A stretch of DNA of 64,000 bases. It comes from a virus. The notes beneath the pieces were generated by a model. The model ran no database searches, was not told the origin of the DNA, and saw only the letters and a list, made by a program, of their open reading frames with translations. Below are positions 11,656 to 50,788 of this stretch, piece by piece. The position numbers were made by a program, and so were the translations under genes. Within the stretch, counting starts at the first letter, position 1; each line of letters begins with the position of its first letter. The DNA lies in the IMG/VR virus record IMGVR_UViG_3300045988_157190, positions 32,001-96,000 of that record; one strand, written 5' to 3'.

Positions 11656-11855
11656 GAAATATATACCTGTATAATTGTTTATAGTTAATCGAGTTGCAAA
11701 CCCATTAAAAGAAAGGAGGTGAGAGCATGAAATAGCAAAAATCTATTCTAAATTCCTCTATGAACAAATCTAAGTTTTAATAAAGGAGGATGCCGAAAAT
11801 CCTTAACAGAGTAGGTACATTAACAATCTCGTTGTTAGTAAATTACGTTAATCAA

Positions 11856-19009: not shown

Positions 19010-21198
19010 TCAAATTAAAGGCGGAGCGAAAGCGCACTTAGCGCGTGCGGAACCTTTAATTTAAAACAAATAGTTATAACCCAATACCAAAAAATAAAAC
19101 CTTATTTAGAATGAATCTAAATAACCAACTACACAAATAAGTAATTATCAACAAATTGAACAAAATTCTATGAAAATAGAAGGAAAGAATGAGAAAAAGC
19201 ATGTCGAAAAACTATAACTAAAAAGTTATAACGAATAGGAAAAAGAGAAAAGAAGGAAATCAAAGGAATGTAAATATGAAAATGTTAGATAAGTAGGTAG
19301 GTGTAAAAATGTGATTTGTGACTTTTTAGATTTATGTATTTCTGGATATGCTTCAAAATTTAGATTATATGATTTTATTAGACACAGATATTTCTTTTTG
19401 TATGGTTTGTAAACTTTGGTATATCTCTATTAGGTGCATATTTAAAAATTTAGCTTTGAAACTTAGAATTTATAATTTTAGAGATGTTTGTGTATGTATT
19501 TGTCCGCCTCACCTGCCATCACCCTCCCCCCAATCCTTTCCCTCCTATCCTTCTATTATCCTATCTTTTCCACTATTCATGTATCTTTCAGAGTGTTTGC
19601 GATTGTGTTTGCTGTCTACTTTTCGCTTCTATTCTTATAGTTGTTGATCACCTTCTATATCTATTTTTATACTCTATACATTGCCTTTCTTTTTTACGGG
19701 AGTTATATTAATACCAAAATGTACCTATTTTCACCTGTAAAACTTCAATACTTTTCATTTTTGACACTAAAATAGAGTAAATCACTTATTGTATAATTTT
19801 TAATCACTCTAAAAAATCGAGTTTTTGAAGTAAAAATAGATAACTTGCTAAAAATCAATATTTTAAATGAATTAATTTTTCGATTACGCCCTATAGGCAA
19901 AAAGAGTTTAACTTATTGTACTTTTTACAATGAAAATAGGGATATTTTAAGCTGAAACCTTTCAAATTTGACACAAATAACCCTATTTTGATATAATAGG
20001 GCATTACCTGTATATACGAGTATCATATATAGCTTCGTATGCATTTATATCTTCTTTTGCTCTGGATATATCCTTATATTTGATTTTTCCTATATATATT
20101 ATATATAATATATATAGGAACTTTTGTTTTTGGTGTATACACTCTTGTACCCTTTCTTTTATCCTTGTACATGGAGTATGTAGGTAGGTGGCACTCCCTC
20201 TATATCCTTTTTGCTTCTCCTTTTTCCCGTTCCTGTGATCCAATTCCATAATATCAAATAATCGTTTTTAAGGCTTTATTTCCTTTTGGGTGGTATTGGT
20301 GTATCATTTTGAAAAGAAAGTGCCAGAAATAAGCGGAAAAGCAGGTAATCCGGGGTATTTTGTTTTAGTAGGGTATCTTTAGGGACTGTTTGAGGACTCT
20401 CCATATAAAGCCTACGTCTCTAATACGTCACAAGACAAAATCCTAAAATAGCACCTATTTGACAAAATTCCCATAGATGTTTATTTGGCTTTCTCCTTTA
20501 CAGGACAAAACTTCCAAATAGGTTCTATGTAGCGAATTTTCAAGATTTATTCTTTTTTTTTGTTTCCACACAAGATAAAACTCTTAAATGTACTCTTATT
20601 GGCAAATTTTCATAGAAAGTTCTTTTATTTATCTCTTTGGTTTTCAATAAATTTTCAATATAATCAAATAGGAGAAGGTGGGTATTTGTTTCCTACACAA
20701 ATAATAATGCTGTGACATTTCTCTACCCTTCTATATACAGGATTTTTAGATTTGCTTTTTTATAGGGCTTTTTTTGAGGGGTAGGGTATTTCTTTTCTGT
20801 TCTATATAGCTGGCTTTTCTGTTTTTCTTTCTTGGTATGTATAGAAATATGGATTTGGGTTCTTATTGGCGATTTTTGGTGGGTTGGTCTATCCGTTTTT
20901 CTTTCGGAAGGGGAATCCTCACGGATTCTTTCTCCCTTCCGAGGGACAATCGCTTCGCTCAACACATAAAATCTCCCTATTTTGACAAAATGATTTAGAA
21001 ACAATCTATATCCCTATCAAAATGATAGAAAGAAAATCGGGTTTTCAAAACTTTTTTCGCTATAAGGGGGTGGACAAAAATTGAAAAATTTAAATTATTG
21101 ATTTTCAGGCTTATGTGATTTTTGATGAATTTCATTCAGCCTATTTTCGACTATTTTTGAATTTTGACTATTTGTAAAGTAAATATATATTTGTTGTT
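19010..21198. other. 2.2-kb ORF-free, repeat-rich region
   Basis: Only short low-complexity ORFs. Contains hairpins, the AT palindrome, a purine/pyrimidine-skewed tract and dispersed GACAAAAyTyCC.ATAG-like words. Confidence 0.7.
20089..20118. repeat. perfect 30-bp AT palindrome
   Basis: cctatatatattatatataatatatatagg is self-complementary at all 15 pairs. Confidence 0.9.
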
Positions 21199-21672
21199 TC
21201 AAAATGATTTTGATTTATCCTTATTTTCCAAAAACTCAAAAATAAAATTATTAAATGCAATTACCTTATTTTTATTATAATATCCCCATTTTTTCAATAA
21301 CTGTACACTATCTTCTGTTAAATATGCACTCTTTTCTATATTTTCTTTTGCTGGTATAATTCTAAGGTTTTCTATAGATGATATTAAGGATACTGGAATA
21401 TGATTTTTATATCCATAGAAAATAGGAACAATGTGGTCTAAATGATATTCTTGTCCTCTTTTACTATTCATACCAAAAGACCTTGCGTTCTTTTCAGAAG
21501 CGTTTTTAACATCATTAAAATAAGTTCTTTTGTTATATTTGTTTTTGACTTTACTTTTTAAATACAAAGGTATTACCAGATTTCTATTTTCTATAGACAG
21601 AGAGTGAAACGCTTTCTTTTCATCTCCATTATAATATTCTATTTGTATTTTATATAATTCTAAAGCGTTCAT
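21199..21672 (-). CDS. HNH endonuclease (free-standing)
   Basis: EYHLDHIVPIFYG...IENLRIIPAKENIEKS (H-N-H pattern). ATG at 21672 is preferred over the TTG at 21711, which lies inside the inverted repeat. Confidence 0.8.
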   Translation of the reverse strand: MNALELYKIQIEYYNGDEKKAFHSLSIENRNLVIPLYLKSKVKNKYNKRTYFNDVKNASEKNARSFGMNSKRGQEYHLDHIVPIFYGYKNHIPVSLISSIENLRIIPAKENIEKSAYLTEDSVQLLKKWGYYNKNKVIAFNNFIFEFLENKDKSKSF

Positions 21673-21783: not shown

Positions 21784-22584
21784 TCATTTTGAGACATATT
21801 CTTTTAGGAACTTGTTCACGAGATAAACTTGTCCTTTCCCGGTTACAAGAGGTGTACTTACCGTAATCAGATCTCCGTTAGGTTTTGTGATCGTTCTTTT
21901 CTTGATCTCGAACATTCCTGCTTCTACCCATCTTTGCATTGGTTGGTTGTAGTATTCGCCTTTCACTCCAAGATACCCTCTTTTGCGAAGCCACTTGAAT
22001 AACCGGTTCTGCCCTACCTCCATTCCATTTTGGCAAATGATCTTGGTAAGCTCGGCAACAAGGCAGGAACGTTTGGATTCGGTTACAGCCATTGCAAAAA
22101 TCACTTTAGGCAAATCTTCTTCTATTTGGTTCTCCAAGTTTTTGTTTTCTTCTGTGAGTTGCCTTGTCTGTTCTTTTAGAGCCTGTCTTTCTTTTTCTTC
22201 TTGAATCCATGTTTCGGCACGCTTGATTGGATTCTCTATTTGATAAGACGGTAAATTGTAGCTTCCGGTTTTTCTAATAGCAGGCAACACTTCGGAAGTT
22301 ACCCATCTTTTAAAACTCTTTGCAGATTCTAATTTACTACCGAAAATCAAAGAGTAAAGCCCACTTTCGTTTATCAAAGTTGTTTGTTGAGTAAAACCTT
22401 GACTGTCAGGGACGCCCTGTTTTAAGTCGTCCTCACTATCAACATGTTGCAAAATTGCGTTTCTGGTGTTAGAATAACCCAAAACAGATGCAACATCTTT
22501 TCCCACAAAGTAAGGTTCGCCATTTACTAACATTGTTCTTACTTCTCCAAATTCTTCATTTTTGAAAATCTTTAATTCACTCAT
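21784..22584 (-). CDS. antirepressor-type protein (Bro-N domain + KilAC/ANT-like C-terminus)
   Basis: N-terminal FKNEEFGEVRTMLVNGEPYFVGKDVASVLGY is the Bro-N pattern. A central coiled coil is followed by a KilAC-like C-terminal domain. Confidence 0.8.
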   Translation of the reverse strand: MSELKIFKNEEFGEVRTMLVNGEPYFVGKDVASVLGYSNTRNAILQHVDSEDDLKQGVPDSQGFTQQTTLINESGLYSLIFGSKLESAKSFKRWVTSEVLPAIRKTGSYNLPSYQIENPIKRAETWIQEEKERQALKEQTRQLTEENKNLENQIEEDLPKVIFAMAVTESKRSCLVAELTKIICQNGMEVGQNRLFKWLRKRGYLGVKGEYYNQPMQRWVEAGMFEIKKRTITKPNGDLITVSTPLVTGKGQVYLVNKFLKEYVSK

Positions 22585-22611
22585 AACTTTGTATTTTAAT
22601 TGTATTTGTAG

Positions 22612-22777
22612 GCAAAAAGAAAACGGCTTTGCCTTTCCCGGTTGCGAATCACATTAAGAAGCATGGTAAGATTTTCCTTAACGTTGGGAAGGCAAAAGCC
22701 GTTTAAATATGAATAGAACGGTTGTTGGTTTCTTGCATTATAAAAGCTTTACCATGTTTGTATTAATGTAATTCGCA
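22612..22777 (-). promoter_or_regulatory. structured leader: long terminator hairpin plus a competing 5' complementary segment (attenuator candidate)
   Basis: Arms 22686-22704 and 22621-22639 form an 18-bp stem with 2 bulges, followed by a U-tract (tcttttt). Segment 22746-22777 is complementary to 22643-22675 inside the hairpin loop. Confidence 0.55.
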
Positions 22778-22780
22778 CCA

Positions 22781-22788
22781 CAAATATA
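22781..22788 (-). promoter_or_regulatory. -7 box TATATTTG (Bacteroides TAnnTTTG type)
   Basis: The - strand reads tatatttg, directly before the leader that feeds into the antirepressor gene. Confidence 0.5.
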
Positions 22789-22837
22789 GCAAAGTTTTGC
22801 TTGATTTTTAGGCTTTCACCAAAAATATCGGAAACCG

Positions 22838-31757: not shown

Positions 31758-32201
31758 ATGGAAAGGAAAATAAAATACTTTATAAGCAAAAGAAGAAGGC
31801 TTTTGTATTTATATTACGAATGGGATGGAGATGTGATGAAAGCGTTCTTGTCGAACTTCTTTCTGCGAGGTATGGATGTGGAAGTCATTCCCAAAGAACA
31901 AAACAGATCAAATGAAGATTTATTGATGGTAGGGTTTGCTCCAGGAAAGAGATTCCTATTAAGAATAGGTGATGGTATTCTACGTGATCCTAATTGGAGA
32001 GCTGCTAGACGAATGAGAAGAGAATATGGCAGGGATCAAAATCCTTTTCCCGGTCTTGTGGAAGTAACAGACGAAGAAAAGATACGATACATAGAAGAAC
32101 AAAAAGAAAAAGGAATTATCAAATTCGACGAATCATTTGTAGAATCTTTACTACCTTTGGGCAAAAGAGTAGAAAACGAAACAAAAGACCAAGAATTTTA
32201 A
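31758..32201 (+). CDS. hypothetical protein
   Basis: ORF track. Followed by two hairpins. Confidence 0.6.
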   Translation: MERKIKYFISKRRRLLYLYYEWDGDVMKAFLSNFFLRGMDVEVIPKEQNRSNEDLLMVGFAPGKRFLLRIGDGILRDPNWRAARRMRREYGRDQNPFPGLVEVTDEEKIRYIEEQKEKGIIKFDESFVESLLPLGKRVENETKDQEF

Positions 32202-35135: not shown

Positions 35136-36347
35136 ATGTATTTAGTAGAACAACATATTATTTCTGTAAATGATAAGAGGTATAAAGATTTAGATCGAAT
35201 TTGCTTCTTATCCAAAAATTTGTACAATGCAGCTTTATATGAAATAAAGCAAGAGTTCCTTCGTACGGGTAAATGGATAAGATACACTTCTCTTGATAGA
35301 AAATTAAAAGATGAAGATAATTTTGATTATAGAGCTATAAGTGCGGCTTCATCTCAACAAATTCTTATGTCTTTAGACAAAAGTCTAAAATCTTATTTTT
35401 TTGCTATCAAAGCATGGAAAAGAGATAACAAGAAATTTACCGGTTGTCCTAAGTTTCCAAAATACAAACATAAGACTAAAGGTAGAAATGTGTTCCCTTA
35501 CTCTTATGCACAGTTTAAGCACAGAGATAATTATATTTTCTTTCCTAAGAAAGAAGGTCTGTCGCCTTTGAAAACAAATTGTAAAGAAGGTTCTGTTAAA
35601 CAAGTTCGATTTGTTCCTAAACCAGATTGTTATATTATAGAGGTTGTATATGAATCAAAAGTAAAAGAACAGCTTCCTGATAACAATAGGGTTATGTCTA
35701 TTGATTTGGGCGTAAATAATCTTGCTTCTATTGTTACTAATGTAAGTAAGAAAGCTATTTTGATTGATGGAAGAAAATTGAAATCCATAAATCAGTATTA
35801 CAACAAAAAGAAGTCAAAAATCCAACAACAGCTAAAAAAGACAAATGGAAAAGAAAATTCGAGGCGGTTAATGTCTCTAACAAGAAAAAGAAACAATAAA
35901 GTGAAAGATTATCTTCATAAAGCAAGTAAAGAAATTATCAATATTTGCTTGGAAGATAATATAACAACGTTGATAGTAGGACATAATGATGGATGGAAGC
36001 AAAATACCAATCTTGGTAAAAGAAACAATCAGAATTTTGTAAGTATTCCATTTGAAACGTTTATATCAATGTTGAGATATAAATCAGAAAGACAAGGACT
36101 AAGGTTTGTTGAAGTAAACGAATCTCATACGTCAAAATGCAGTTCTTTTGATTTAGAACCAGTGGAACATCATGATCCTTACGTTGGTAAAAGAGTAAAA
36201 AGAGGACTTTTTAAAACAAAAGATGGAATTTTGCTCAATGCAGATATCAACGGAAGTTACAATATCATGAGAAAAGTAAAAGGGGATGCAGCAATGCCAC
36301 CCTATACAGGGTTTGGGTATAACCCAGTTAAGAAATTTATTAACTAA
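35136..36347 (+). CDS. tnpB: TnpB-like RuvC nuclease, copy B (intact)
   Basis: SIDLGVNNL (D), NESHTSK (E) and NADINGSYNI (D). Collinear with copies A and C. TAAATTTG box 4 nt before the ATG. Confidence 0.85.
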   Translation: MYLVEQHIISVNDKRYKDLDRICFLSKNLYNAALYEIKQEFLRTGKWIRYTSLDRKLKDEDNFDYRAISAASSQQILMSLDKSLKSYFFAIKAWKRDNKKFTGCPKFPKYKHKTKGRNVFPYSYAQFKHRDNYIFFPKKEGLSPLKTNCKEGSVKQVRFVPKPDCYIIEVVYESKVKEQLPDNNRVMSIDLGVNNLASIVTNVSKKAILIDGRKLKSINQYYNKKKSKIQQQLKKTNGKENSRRLMSLTRKRNNKVKDYLHKASKEIINICLEDNITTLIVGHNDGWKQNTNLGKRNNQNFVSIPFETFISMLRYKSERQGLRFVEVNESHTSKCSSFDLEPVEHHDPYVGKRVKRGLFKTKDGILLNADINGSYNIMRKVKGDAAMPPYTGFGYNPVKKFIN

Positions 36348-49505: not shown

Positions 49506-50788
49506 GGAGGGTAATTTGTTTATTTTGTTTTTATTGAAATTTCAAATAGTAAAATTGATTGATGAGATTGGTTGAAAAACATATTGTTAAAGATAACCGA
49601 TTTGAAGATATTTGCCTCAAATCAGGATTGCTATATAATTATGTCCTGTATAATGTGCGTCAAGGTATCTTCAATAAAGAATATCTGAAAGAATATGATC
49701 TTTCTACTAAACTTTGCAAAGAAAATCAATTTGATTTTAGAAATTTGCCATCATCTATTTCTCAGCAAGTAGTTGGACAAGTATTCAAGTCTATCAATTC
49801 TTGGATAAAGTTGAAAAAGGATTTTGGAAAGAATCCAGCTAAACACAACAATCGTAAGCCTCACCTTCCTTCTTACAAGAAAGGAAAGAAACAGAATATG
49901 GTAGTCTTTACAACTTCTGCTTGTAGAATCAAAGATGGATATATTTACTTCGTTAAAAATATCATTCAACCAATTAAAACTAAAATAGGAAACAATAAAC
50001 TATGTCAAGTTAGAATTATACCACAAGCTACTTGTTATGTAGTTGAAGTGATTTACGAAAAGAAAGAACAGGATTTGAATTTAAACAAAGATAATGTTCT
50101 TTCGATTGATTTGGGATTGAATAATTTATGTTCATGTATTAACAATGCAGGAAAACAACCTTTCATTGTAAACGGACATATTATCAAATCTTTTAATCAG
50201 TGGTACAATAAGAGAAAAGCTAAATTAATGTCTTTTGCAGGAGACAAAGGGACTTCAAAAAGACTTAGACAACTTAACAATTATAGGAATTTTTGGATAG
50301 AAGATCATATCCATAAGGTTAGTAGATTTATTATAAACTATTGTATTGACAATAATATCGGTAGTCTTGTAGTAGGACTGAATAAAGGATGGAAACAGAA
50401 AATTAATCTTGGAAAGAAAACAAACCAGAAATTTGTTGAGATTCCTTTTTCAAGGCTTATAGATAAAATTTCCTATAAATGCAAATTAGTTGGAATTAGT
50501 TTTTATCTTAGTGAAGAATCATACACATCAAAGGTTGATCATTTAGCTTTTGAAGAATTAGGAAAACATGACGCTTACTTAGGCAAAAGAAAGAAACGTG
50601 GGTTGTTCCAAAGTTCTGTAAATAAATTGATTAACGCAGATATCAATGGAGCTATTGGAATAGGTAGAAAAGTATTCAGTGATTCTTATGTAAGTAGGAT
50701 AATTGATAGTGGGTTAGCGTTTACCCCGGTCAAAGTAAACATTGCATAGTGTGGAAATTTGATAAATGAAATTTAAAATTTTAGTAAC
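49506..50788 (+). mobile_element. tnpB-only IS200/IS605-like insertion between two virion genes (boundaries approximate)
   Basis: The whole intergenic gap is filled by tnpB copy C, with 56 bp of 5' and 39 bp of 3' flank. GAAATTTCAAATA (5') and GAAATTTGATAAAT (3') are similar end words. Confidence 0.5.
49562..50749 (+). CDS. tnpB: TnpB-like RuvC nuclease, copy C (intact)
   Basis: SIDLGLNNL (D), SEESYTSK (E) and NADINGAIGI (D). The closest paralog is copy A. Confidence 0.85.
   Translation: MRLVEKHIVKDNRFEDICLKSGLLYNYVLYNVRQGIFNKEYLKEYDLSTKLCKENQFDFRNLPSSISQQVVGQVFKSINSWIKLKKDFGKNPAKHNNRKPHLPSYKKGKKQNMVVFTTSACRIKDGYIYFVKNIIQPIKTKIGNNKLCQVRIIPQATCYVVEVIYEKKEQDLNLNKDNVLSIDLGLNNLCSCINNAGKQPFIVNGHIIKSFNQWYNKRKAKLMSFAGDKGTSKRLRQLNNYRNFWIEDHIHKVSRFIINYCIDNNIGSLVVGLNKGWKQKINLGKKTNQKFVEIPFSRLIDKISYKCKLVGISFYLSEESYTSKVDHLAFEELGKHDAYLGKRKKRGLFQSSVNKLINADINGAIGIGRKVFSDSYVSRIIDSGLAFTPVKVNIA

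Follow-up and report, generated by a model that had tools for sequence, protein, structure and literature searches.

In the trp and pyr leaders, the T-box leaders and the transcriptional riboswitches, the RNA between promoter and gene holds a hairpin followed by a U-tract, and an upstream segment competes for one of the hairpin strands. The same layout stands in front of an antirepressor-family gene in the stretch of viral DNA analysed here (IMG/VR record IMGVR_UViG_3300045988_157190, positions 32,001 to 96,000; the whole stretch of 64,000 nt is hereafter the window). This leader nevertheless departs from classic attenuators in that competition is for a strand of the terminator's loop and upper part rather than of its lower stem, in that the antiterminator is a helix of 24-38 bp starting from the extreme 5' end of the RNA, and in that no leader-peptide, aptamer, tRNA- or protein-binding module was recognised and the predicted ground state is read-through.

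Control of an antirepressor-type gene by RNA from its own leader is known from P1/P7 c4 icd-ant (immI) and P4 CI, where, too, short complementary blocks vary between phages and stay matched within each. In contrast to the C4 systems, where translation is blocked in trans in combination with Rho, the leader analysed here is predicted to act on an intrinsic terminator in cis, the blocks are clear of the ribosome-binding region of the next gene, and no evidence of processing was found. P22 sar/ant is another case of RNA-level control of a phage antirepressor, but sar is an opposite-strand transcript across the ant start, and nothing equivalent is conserved at this locus.

In the countertranscript attenuation of pT181, pIP501 and pAMbeta1, a leader segment likewise pre-empts the terminator, and blocking that segment yields the terminator; those systems have an antisense promoter within the leader, whereas here no opposite-strand TAnnTTTG is conserved. 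As in IS10 RNA-IN/RNA-OUT, a free 5' end would pair with the loop of a stem-loop and zip into a long duplex, except that here a single molecule carries both partners and the effect expected is control of termination instead of a translation block. Finally, one lineage of the family carries an exact inversion between 19-bp repeats, which recalls hairpin-loop inversions and the invertible promoters of Bacteroides; unlike the latter, the flipped segment holds no promoter, it is RNA complementarity that changes, and no invertase was found among the ORFs tested. Literature searches returned no description of this leader element. Our verdict, based on sequence comparison, is that it represents a variant of the terminator/antiterminator attenuator and a previously undescribed RNA family absent from Rfam.

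Layout and distribution of the leader

The preliminary description of this DNA had drawn on a series of minus-strand strings, from TATATTTG at 22788-22781 through the ATG at 22584, all of which are present where it had placed them; the gap between tctttttgcc and the antirepressor ATG, given as 27 nt, measures 26 nt. The features are collected in Table 1.

Table 1 Features of the leader and of the gene behind it, in window coordinates
Feature	Position	Strand	Remarks
-7 promoter box TATATTTG	22788-22781	-	Bacteroidetes sigma-ABfr type, TAnnTTTG; read directly
5' arm (A)	22777-22746	-	Paired with the terminator loop at 22776-22763 and 22759-22749 (MFE fold)
Central spacer with conserved block GAAACCAACAACCGTTCTATTCATATTT	22745-22705	-	Conserved across class 1
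B, 5' arm of terminator stem (AAACGGCTTTTGCCTTCCC)	22704-22686	-	18 bp with 22639-22621
Inner 5' strand of terminator loop, mimic of the 5' arm	22685-22671	-	22684-22675 pair with 22651-22660
A', loop strand complementary to the 5' arm	22670-22643	-	Middle part, 22651-22660, is the shared switch strand
B', 3' arm of terminator stem (GGGAAAGGCAAAGCCGTTT)	22639-22621	-	Most conserved piece of the family
U-tract (TTTTCTTTTT)	22623-22614	-	Predicted termination point; overlaps the last 3 stem pairs
B'' (TTTTGCCT)	22617-22610	-	In read-through RNA, paired with 22627-22634 of B'
A-rich 5' UTR of the antirepressor gene	22609-22585	-	Without promoter box
Antirepressor-family gene, Bro-N + KilAC/ANT, 266 aa	22584-21784	-	PF02498 5.5e-28, PF03374 4.3e-25

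Matches to TAnnTTTG, a promoter consensus taken from PMC7366714, are enriched in the window (126 versus 84 ± 9 expected), and none of 100 shuffles contained as many. Transcription is predicted to start at ~22776, ~5 nt past the TATATTTG box, and the distance from the -7 box to the start of the helix formed by the 5' arm is constant in almost all homologous leaders; three copies have variant boxes, namely TATACTTG (L017) and TATATCTG (L011, L040). A scan of the window sequence found no minus-strand TAnnTTTG between the U-tract and the ATG, in agreement with the earlier claim that no further promoter box lies between terminator and gene, so that antirepressor expression must pass through the leader.

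The 206-nt leader region folds at -50.2 kcal/mol, compared to -33.2 ± 4.2 for its shuffles (z = -4.1, with 1 of 200 as good), and an inverted-repeat search independently recovered the 19-nt arms with 46 nt between them (I2), as well as repeats of 15 nt (I4, 93% complementarity) and 11 nt (I9, 91%). The hairpin consists of 18 bp with one bulge per arm and a 46-nt interior, followed by tctttttgcc. With the interior kept open, its stem amounts to -23 kcal/mol, and the U-rich TTTTCTTTTT lies directly 3' of it, giving the stem and U-tract of an intrinsic terminator. Our consensus terminator scan did not flag this hairpin because the scan had a loop limit of 8 nt; stem and U-tract are found in all family members, the U-tract varying slightly in length, and we infer that transcripts do end at this predicted terminator. 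Upstream of it, the central spacer may form a small local hairpin. Spacer and B together (22745-22686) are 90% identical to the homologous copy L001, against 79% at the third codon positions of ant, and the B'-B'' block reaches 97% identity to the same copy; the exact B' 19-mer recurs in 38 contigs of gut phages, with one further match due to chance.

The element as a whole occurs in about 60 related gut-phage contigs, in three sequence classes that have in common the promoter box, the 5' arm at the predicted +1, B, B', the U-tract and B'', and it is no chance repeat. Classes 2 and 3 have other B sequences, whose complements lie at different registers of the same B'. The small B':B'' hairpin, which buries the U-tract, belongs to the MFE structure of nearly all leaders and to the RNAalifold consensus, and in class 3 its closing pair shows a compensatory change from A-U to G-C (GGGCAAAG with CTTTTGCCC). 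The arm/loop helix measures 24-38 bp across the family.

The element nearly always precedes antirepressor-family genes, mostly KilAC fusions (Bro-N+KilAC, AntA+KilAC, Rha+KilAC, KilA-N+KilAC, or else Rha), at a distance of 20-26 nt from the start codon, except for 56 nt in one subtype (L008/L021). Genes for antirepressor-type DNA-binding proteins are often toxic. Some close ant homologs are without the leader altogether, such as that of L081 at 95% identity. A retron test found no reverse transcriptase next to the element, whose neighbours are the Bro-N/KilAC gene and ORFs without a Pfam match. Carriers include both ~100-kb myovirus-like phages and phages of 20-45 kb, and a scan of species-representative genomes with the conserved 3' motif gave 20 matches, all of them chance matches in unrelated taxa, and no prophage copy. 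The window phage itself resembles a myovirus of ~100 kb, having an NAD-ligase, helicases of the SNF2 and UvrD types and a portal like that of SPO1 and Bacteroides DAC phages, and no lysogeny genes were found among the ORFs tested; this gene set makes the original framing of the locus in terms of temperate phages such as P22 doubtful.

Two competing folds on one loop strand

Strand 22651-22660 can pair either with 22769-22758 in the 5' arm or with 22684-22675 in the terminator loop. The pairing of the 5' arm with the terminator loop gives 24 bp in two blocks in the MFE fold of the window leader. Across 14 relatives, 96% of the cells of this helix are paired, compared to about 40% when the partners are slid; double changes affect 8 pairs and 30 cells, none of 500 shuffles reached the covariation score, and the outer part of the helix was found independently by RNAalifold. 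For the inner loop helix the corresponding values are 91% versus 41-52%, with 6 double-change cells and, again, 0 of 500 shuffles. Moreover, columns 107 (inner helix) and 9 (5' arm) both covary with column 138, from C/C/G to U/U/A, and we regard such three-way covariation as the hallmark of a genuine RNA switch with two states. The locus has what characterises a terminator/antiterminator pair, that is, exclusive helices which share one strand and are both conserved with compensatory changes. The original proposal of a leader with two mutually exclusive folds is borne out by these comparisons, including the covariation in homologous leaders that had been suggested as a check, and hardly any variation is seen in hairpin, U-tract or promoter box.

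For class 2, pairing was assessed from per-sequence duplexes, as the MAFFT alignment loses the register of the arms. In the family, duplex folds contain 71 G-U against 5 A-C pairs, a wobble bias that points to RNA of the minus strand; in a neutral DNA alignment the bias is 18 to 7 (p = 0.04). The B:B' helix has 97% of its cells paired, yet it is almost invariant within class 1, and this scarcity of covariation of its own speaks against reading the leader as an attenuator.

Pairing of the 5' segment with the loop had also been described as topologically incompatible with the terminator stem. Exclusivity does hold, through the shared strand 22651-22660 together with kinetics, but strict topological incompatibility does not: the lower 10 bp of the terminator have no bases in common with the antiterminator, and our geometric estimate suggests that they could still form alongside it as a pseudoknot, in which case antitermination would have to be kinetic. 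In the terminator fold, the apical part of A' (22661-22670) is paired only at 22663-22664, and the bulge at 22640-22650 is wholly unpaired.

Folding at the termination point gave the antiterminator as MFE structure in every normal leader but the hybrid L015, and in the others it is favoured by 7-19 kcal/mol. When nt 1-30 were blocked in silico, the stem adjoining the U-tract formed in 26 of 26 leaders, with 10-11 of the 11 checked positions paired in 24 of them and 7-8 in the remaining two (L023, L034); the inner helix 22684-22675:22660-22651 likewise forms in the constrained fold once these first 30 nt are blocked. In simulated nascent RNA, the first 20-25 nt stay unpaired until the loop has been transcribed. 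The predicted default state is hence read-through, not termination.

We favour the view that the leader is a cis-acting transcription attenuator of the antirepressor gene, and place somewhat more than half of our confidence in it. The RNA would begin with the 5' arm, ~5 nt past TATATTTG. Downstream lies a composite terminator, made of the lower stem B:B', the inner helix 22684-22675:22660-22651 stacked above it, and the U-tract; the entire 3' half of its loop is complementary to the 5' arm. Pairing of arm and loop would strip 22651-22660 from the inner helix and set a rigid ~24-bp helix of two blocks within the terminator; in this antiterminator state B' would pair with TTTTGCCT, and polymerase would read into the gene. 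Were the 5' arm unavailable, the local terminator hairpin would form and transcription would stop at ~22614, so that the released RNA would be roughly 160 nt long. We infer that the balance between the folds is regulated, most likely by an input that occupies or removes the free 5' arm, be it an RNA, a protein or a nuclease; alternatively, polymerase speed could act as input in the brief period during which the arm competes with the local helix. The structure of the leader is well supported, and from that structure we deduce that it probably gates the antirepressor gene. Counting against this view are the lack of a recognised sensor, a default predicted to be read-through, a lower stem that could coexist with the antiterminator, the miss by the consensus terminator scan and the close ant homologs without the leader.

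Several of these features would also suit an element of RNA processing or stability, an explanation that we consider unlikely. In this case, the arm:loop duplex would protect the 5' end or provide a cleavage site for RNase III, the hairpin would be a constitutive leaky terminator or insulator, and the mRNA would, once processed, be stabilised by the small B':B'' hairpin. Consistently, every class has the helix beginning right at the predicted +1, its 24-38 bp far exceed the usual need of an attenuator, the lower terminator stem, which has no bases in common with it, could by our geometric estimate form alongside, and the conserved B':B'' hairpin sits at the start of the would-be processed UTR. 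Processing nevertheless accounts neither for the competing, covarying helix on the same loop strand nor for the largely single-stranded display of both ends of A' in the terminator fold.

Leader alleles and candidate inputs

No recognisable sensor was found, in that the leader has no conserved leader peptide and no Rfam aptamer. In the window, an ORF of 11 codons that ends where the stem begins was rejected as leader peptide, close relatives being without the mini-ORF; a 10-codon mini-ORF is present in 4 of 6 class 2 subtypes, but such mini-ORFs differ or are missing between subtypes. Rfam searches with the window leader and a class 2 leader (cmscan, E up to 10) gave only sub-threshold chance matches to miRNA, snoRNA and ctRNA families and none to the C4 covariance model, and the sole match on the whole window at gathering thresholds was DUF805b (11783-11817), away from the leader. 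Unlike C4-type blocks, which overlap a start codon, the complementary blocks at 22776-22749 and 22669-22644 are clear of the ATG at 22584. A TAnnTTTG scan revealed no conserved promoter on the opposite strand, the only nearby plus-strand box (TAACTTTG, 22584-22591) being lost in relatives. The stretch 22790-22818 had been considered as a complement of the ant start region (72%, I1) and was dropped, since by eye it is not conserved in L001.

The arms and loops come in matched types. Judging from duplex energies, cognate arm/loop pairs reach -28 to -40 kcal/mol and pairs with other types mostly -5 to -27, close alleles cross-pairing nearly as strongly as cognates; the arm of the hybrid L015 pairs at -35.6 with the L001 loop versus -23.8 with its own. 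At least 7 largely allele-specific 5'-arm/loop pairings can be distinguished. L158 carries the window allele at 94-98% identity in front of an ant as diverged as the genes behind other alleles, and L150 and L151 have a different leader allele with an Ant protein that is 96-97% identical, from which it appears that recombination shuffles leader alleles independently of the adjacent gene. Faster-than-neutral evolution of the arms (63-67% identity between the window and L001 versus 79% at third codon positions) was for this reason dropped as an interpretation, as L158 shows recombination decoupling. In class 2, a covarying terminator hairpin directly follows the 5' arm and forms an earlier, second terminator.

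Such matched and shuffled types would be expected of a trans-acting RNA system of specificity or immunity, in which a loop hairpin RNA, or the short arm RNA of class 2, would pair with nascent leaders of the same allele made from other genome copies and set their termination, giving control specific to each phage. The class 2 arm with its hairpin has the seed-plus-terminator layout of a small RNA, the controlled gene is of antirepressor type, as in P1 immI, and Bacteroides small RNAs are reported to use extended seeds without Hfq (PMC7366714). We still judge this reading rather improbable: the cis 5' arm of each transcript should outcompete a partner in trans, no processing signal or separate promoter was found for a loop-only RNA, there is no match to an Rfam C4 or antisense family, the arms are clear of the ant start, and the element is single in each stretch.

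A search of both strands of the 64-kb window for a second copy or partner of either arm (11-mers and a duplex-energy scan) gave nothing above background, the best non-self duplex being -22.8 kcal/mol compared to -28.1 for the cis partner, and each genome stretch examined holds one copy of the element. This bears on the idea that the terminated RNA of ~160 nt (~65 nt in class 2) is itself the functional product, a small RNA acting alone on targets elsewhere, with leaky read-through into the gene. Although promoter and terminator delimit a discrete transcription unit, with the earlier second terminator in class 2, this is very doubtful given the lack of a target above background in the window, the tight linkage to one gene class at near-constant spacing to the start codon, and the fact that the full-length RNA buries its own 5' arm.

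The inverted loop and the significance of matched pairs

In one phage lineage the interior from B to B' is present as an exact inversion, whose crossover falls within the perfect outer repeat of 10 bp. The flipped loop is present in three assemblies, L020/L079 (mid-contig), L041 and L042; ant is intact in L020 and L042, the two flipped contigs that hold the whole gene, and the RNA of this lineage folds in silico as terminator. As in an inverton, 19-bp inverted repeats flank a segment known in both orientations. Both orientations were not seen within one lineage, and in everything recovered orientation follows lineage: six newly recovered contigs with the window-type leader are all in normal orientation, like the other normal-type copies. 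Phase variation was rejected on the basis of a viral and metagenome scan for inverted junctions and of contigs with identical or near-identical Ant, which show the orientation to be fixed by lineage. Spontaneous flipping of hairpin loops is known in other genomes, and, to our knowledge, known invertases need more than the 46 bp that separate these repeats; the about 28 ORFs tested included no recombinase. A DNA-level element, either an invertible phase switch with B and B' as its inverted repeats or a pair of protein-binding sites formed by arm and loop, could account for the exactly inverted interior of the flipped lineage, whose RNA folds as terminator, but is highly improbable in view of the lineage-fixed orientation, the absence of a recombinase among those ORFs, and a wobble bias, +1 position and U-tract that all point to RNA.

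Beyond attenuation in cis, the matched arm/loop pair might constitute an addressable RNA code by which leader-derived RNAs recognise leaders of their own type in trans, which we consider improbable. If true, antirepressor expression in co-infected Bacteroidales cells would be subject to cross-talk or immunity specific to each phage. Inversion of the loop would then heritably switch the code off, since the loop would now repeat the sequence of the 5' arm instead of complementing it, a DNA inversion acting via RNA complementarity and not via promoter orientation.

The design of the leader is unusual in that the 5' end of the RNA would invade the upper half of the terminator via two exposed single-stranded patches. 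The family provides natural controls in the form of largely allele-specific pairings, one mismatched hybrid, a flipped-loop lineage and leaderless relatives, and arm/loop pairs could serve as sequence-programmable parts in Bacteroides engineering. How phages of gut Bacteroidales, hosts without Hfq and ProQ (PMC7366714), regulate their genes has hardly been explored, and a conserved leader RNA supported by covariation adds a new family; its link to one gene class turns the question of how antirepressor-type genes are kept in check into a testable one.

Architecture and distribution of the leader

All of the elements listed in the preliminary description (promoter box, 5' segment, hairpin arms, interior and TCTTTTTGCC) were present in a 253-nt minus-strand intergenic gap, bounded by a 249-aa ORF and by the Bro-N/KilAC antirepressor-family gene, here called ant. 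The terminator stem consists of 18 pairs with one bulge on each of its arms, which we term B (5') and B' (3'). Folding of the leader region gave −50.2 kcal/mol compared to −33.2 ± 4.2 kcal/mol for shuffled versions (z = −4.1), and the minimum-energy fold was the long helix between the 5' segment (5' arm) and the hairpin interior (loop), not the hairpin.

Features of the window
Feature	Position	Strand	Basis
249-aa ORF	23587-22838	-	Pfam search, no match
Second TAnnTTTG box TATTTTTG	22820-22827	-	
29-nt segment just upstream of promoter box	22790-22818		repeat search
Promoter box TATATTTG	22788-22781	-	sequence
5' segment	22777-22746	-	sequence
Hairpin arms around 46-nt interior	22704-22686 and 22639-22621	-	sequence; repeat search gives same arms
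TCTTTTTGCC after 3' arm, then 26 nt to ATG		-	sequence
Opposite-strand box TAACTTTG	22584-22591	+	
Bro-N/KilAC gene	22584-21784	-	Pfam, 5.5e-28 and 4.3e-25
AT-rich stretch, ~1.6 kb	19600-21200		
DUF805b RNA motif	11783-11817	+	Rfam, 52 bits (gathering score 35.6)
TnpB-type genes (OrfB_IS605 + Cas12f1-like TNB domain)	35136-36347 and 49559-50749	+	

The primary sigma factor of Bacteroidetes has TAnnTTTG as its −7 consensus (PMC7366714), and this motif occurs 126 times in the window against 84 ± 9 expected. Another box, 40 nt upstream of the promoter box, is absent from the GenBank relative MT835500 (TATCTTTT). A box on the opposite strand shares bases with the ant start codon, and RNA initiated there would be antisense to the entire leader; this box is not kept in relatives. 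The 29-nt segment shows 72% complementarity with 22563-22591, around the ant start; by eye this match is not kept in the related locus L001, and the pairing would be relevant only for transcripts entering from upstream.

The sole relative in GenBank, MT835500.1 from a human-gut virome (88% identity over the region), has hairpin arms and a spacer almost identical to those of the window, and its 5' segment and loop differ at about one-third of positions with pairing retained. The exact 19-mer of the 3' arm was found in 38 IMG/VR contigs, plus one chance match, and additional copies, including a third sequence class, came from further scans and from a search with the KilAC protein alignment. The leader is thus a family rather than a chance repeat, and its copies all share, in order, the TAnnTTTG box, the 5' arm (starting 4–5 nt past the box), B, the complementary loop, B', a U-tract and CTTTTGCC(T/C). 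In classes 2 and 3 the sequence of B is different, and it pairs with the same B' in other registers. Class 2 additionally carries, immediately after the 5' arm, a covarying hairpin and T-run (for example L014:6440-6700 and L038:6366-6540), which could possibly yield a ~65-nt RNA; the T-run also serves as the loop of an alternative hairpin, the big loop contains a small hairpin with a TTAATG loop, and four of six subtypes have a mini-ORF of 10 codons that stops at the stem. The element was detected in none of 185,579 species-representative genomes, an Rfam search placed it in no curated RNA family, and a literature search returned no description of it.

Two helices competing for one strand

Covariation in homologous leaders, proposed in the preliminary description as a check, was found. 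In the 5'-arm:loop helix, 96% of cells were paired across a set of 14 distinct leaders from classes 1 and 3, compared to 36–49% with the partners slid; both sides had changed in 8 pairs and 30 cells, a score reached by 0 of 500 shuffles, and RNAalifold independently predicted the outer 13 pairs. On the ant-sense strand, non-Watson–Crick positions were mostly G-U, with 71 G-U and 5 A-C in duplex folds and, when a neutral DNA alignment was used, 18 G-U and 7 A-C (p = 0.04); this bias speaks for an RNA transcribed in the ant sense rather than for a signal in double-stranded DNA.

When nt 1–30 were blocked in silico, the stem adjoining the U-tract formed in every leader, and in class 1 an inner helix (22684-22675 with 22660-22651) stacked on B:B'. 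Across relatives this inner helix was 91% paired, compared to 41–52% when slid, and none of 500 shuffles reached its score. One of its strands is the strand used by the middle of the 5'-arm helix: a G-to-A change in alignment column 138 is accompanied by C-to-U changes in both of its alternative partners, column 9 (5' arm) and column 107 (loop). Such covariation of one shared strand with two partners is expected of a genuine two-state RNA. An RNase III or 5'-end-protection element beside a constitutive terminator would also account for a 5'-arm:loop helix, yet it leaves the competing, covarying helix unexplained, and we consider this processing or stability role rather unlikely.

In the terminator fold, 22661-22670 (only 22663-22664 paired) is largely and 22640-22650 wholly single-stranded, and these parts of the loop may offer two landing sites, or toeholds, for the 5' arm. 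B' can alternatively pair with the downstream TTTTGCCT, a pairing present in almost all minimum-energy folds and marked in class 3 by a compensatory A-U to G-C change. The existence of two partners would account for B' being conserved more strongly than any other part of the leader (97%, compared to 79% at ant third codon positions).

Allele exchange, downstream genes and the phage

Cognate 5'-arm/loop pairing ranged from −28 to −40 kcal/mol in all classes, compared to mostly −5 to −27 kcal/mol between types; at least seven pairings are largely allele-specific, with closely related alleles cross-pairing almost as strongly as cognates. Locus L158 carries the window allele at 94–98% identity with an ant gene as diverged as those behind other alleles, and L150 and L151 have another allele with Ant proteins 96–97% identical. 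Judging from these comparisons, leader alleles are shuffled relative to the downstream gene, and simple fast drift of the arms was dropped as an explanation. This allele pattern, together with the seed-plus-terminator layout of class 2, makes a trans-acting specificity system attractive (like P1 c4, P4 CI or IS10 RNA-IN/OUT), but the cis arm is always present and tests for membership in the known systems were negative, leaving this reading quite improbable. For a stand-alone small RNA, which the preliminary description had offered as its other option, no target was found in the 64-kb window, and we regard it as very unlikely.

In one phage lineage, seen in three assemblies (L020/L079, at 50–54 kb of a 99.7-kb contig; L042, inside a 106-kb contig; and L041, with SNP differences), the segment between the 19-bp inverted repeats (window equivalent 22640-22685) is exactly inverted. 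The flipped loop repeats the 5'-arm sequence where other leaders have its complement and so is no longer complementary to the arm, and the predicted fold is the terminator. In both contigs that span it whole, the ant gene is intact, and gene callers extend its ORF through the leader to 299 aa (P0004). Since every other copy, including six further contigs with the window-type leader, has the normal orientation, we read the flip as a lineage-fixed inversion and not as demonstrated phase variation; a DNA inversion switch or paired protein sites, supported by this lineage only, is hardly credible. A hybrid leader (L015/L080) joins the 5' arm of the L001 allele to the loop of another; in L015 the arm/loop pairing is weak (−24 compared to −36 kcal/mol), and by default this leader is predicted to form the terminator.

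The gene downstream of the leader nearly always belongs to the antirepressor family, with an exchanged N-terminal domain (Bro-N, AntA, Rha or KilA-N) followed by KilAC, or with Rha alone; the exception is the L002/L014 subtype, which has an 82-aa ORF without a Pfam match. The domain swap falls directly past the conserved 3' end of the leader (L004, L065, L022, L003 and the window), and the KilAC part is 93–95% identical in several swapped genes and less similar where KilA-N or Rha substitutes for Bro-N. The leader 3' end may serve as a recombination junction. Three loci (L081, L098, L101) encode close ant homologs (up to 95% identity, in L081) without any leader, the ATG lying immediately behind the upstream ORF (...CCAGAAAAATG). 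Class 3 loci have that upstream end in common with them, and the comparison suggests that the entire leader was precisely lost or gained. In the class 2 locus L038, terminase genes immediately follow the Rha gene.

Genes in the window include those for an NAD-dependent ligase, SNF2 and UvrD helicases, two TnpB proteins and a BACON-domain protein. The portal shares ~36% identity with its counterparts in large Bacteroides phages and ~35% with those in SPO1-like phages, and contigs with class 1 and class 3 copies reach ~100–108 kb; on these features the phage appears to be a large Bacteroidales myovirus. Among the window ORFs tested, none was a lysogeny gene. Just downstream of the ant operon, the AT-rich stretch contains no ORF above ~90 aa, no tRNA and no Rfam match; it may represent a genome end, an origin or a non-coding region of a kind not yet described. 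The DUF805b motif is the sole curated RNA family in the window.

A proposed attenuation mechanism

The structure of the leader is well supported and agrees with that of a terminator/antiterminator attenuator in every structural feature that could be checked, and we infer that the leader works like one. Three features set it apart from textbook attenuators: the strand under competition belongs to the upper hairpin and loop, it is the extreme 5' end of the RNA that makes the antiterminator, and no sensor is visible. We found no conserved leader peptide, no aptamer (Rfam search), no conserved antisense promoter and, in 64 kb, no second complementary site. The two folds had been described as topologically incompatible; the alternative folds stand, but strict incompatibility does not, as by geometric estimate the length of the linkers would allow the lower 10 bp to form beside the long helix. 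Antitermination, if it occurs, would thus have to act by removing the upper helix and slowing the folding of the hairpin.

The RNA would begin with the 5' arm, which is unpaired in predicted folds of the nascent transcript. Once transcribed, the loop strand could take either this distant arm or the adjacent loop strand as its partner. If the arm wins, a rigid helix would split the terminator, B' would later pair downstream and polymerase would enter the gene; an arm that is occupied, removed or too slow would let the hairpin form locally, and transcription would end in the U-tract. In normal leaders, the hybrid L015 excepted, the antiterminator is predicted to be more stable than the terminator by 7–19 kcal/mol, and read-through is therefore the predicted default. 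Control of the antirepressor-family gene should then come from whatever limits the 5' arm.
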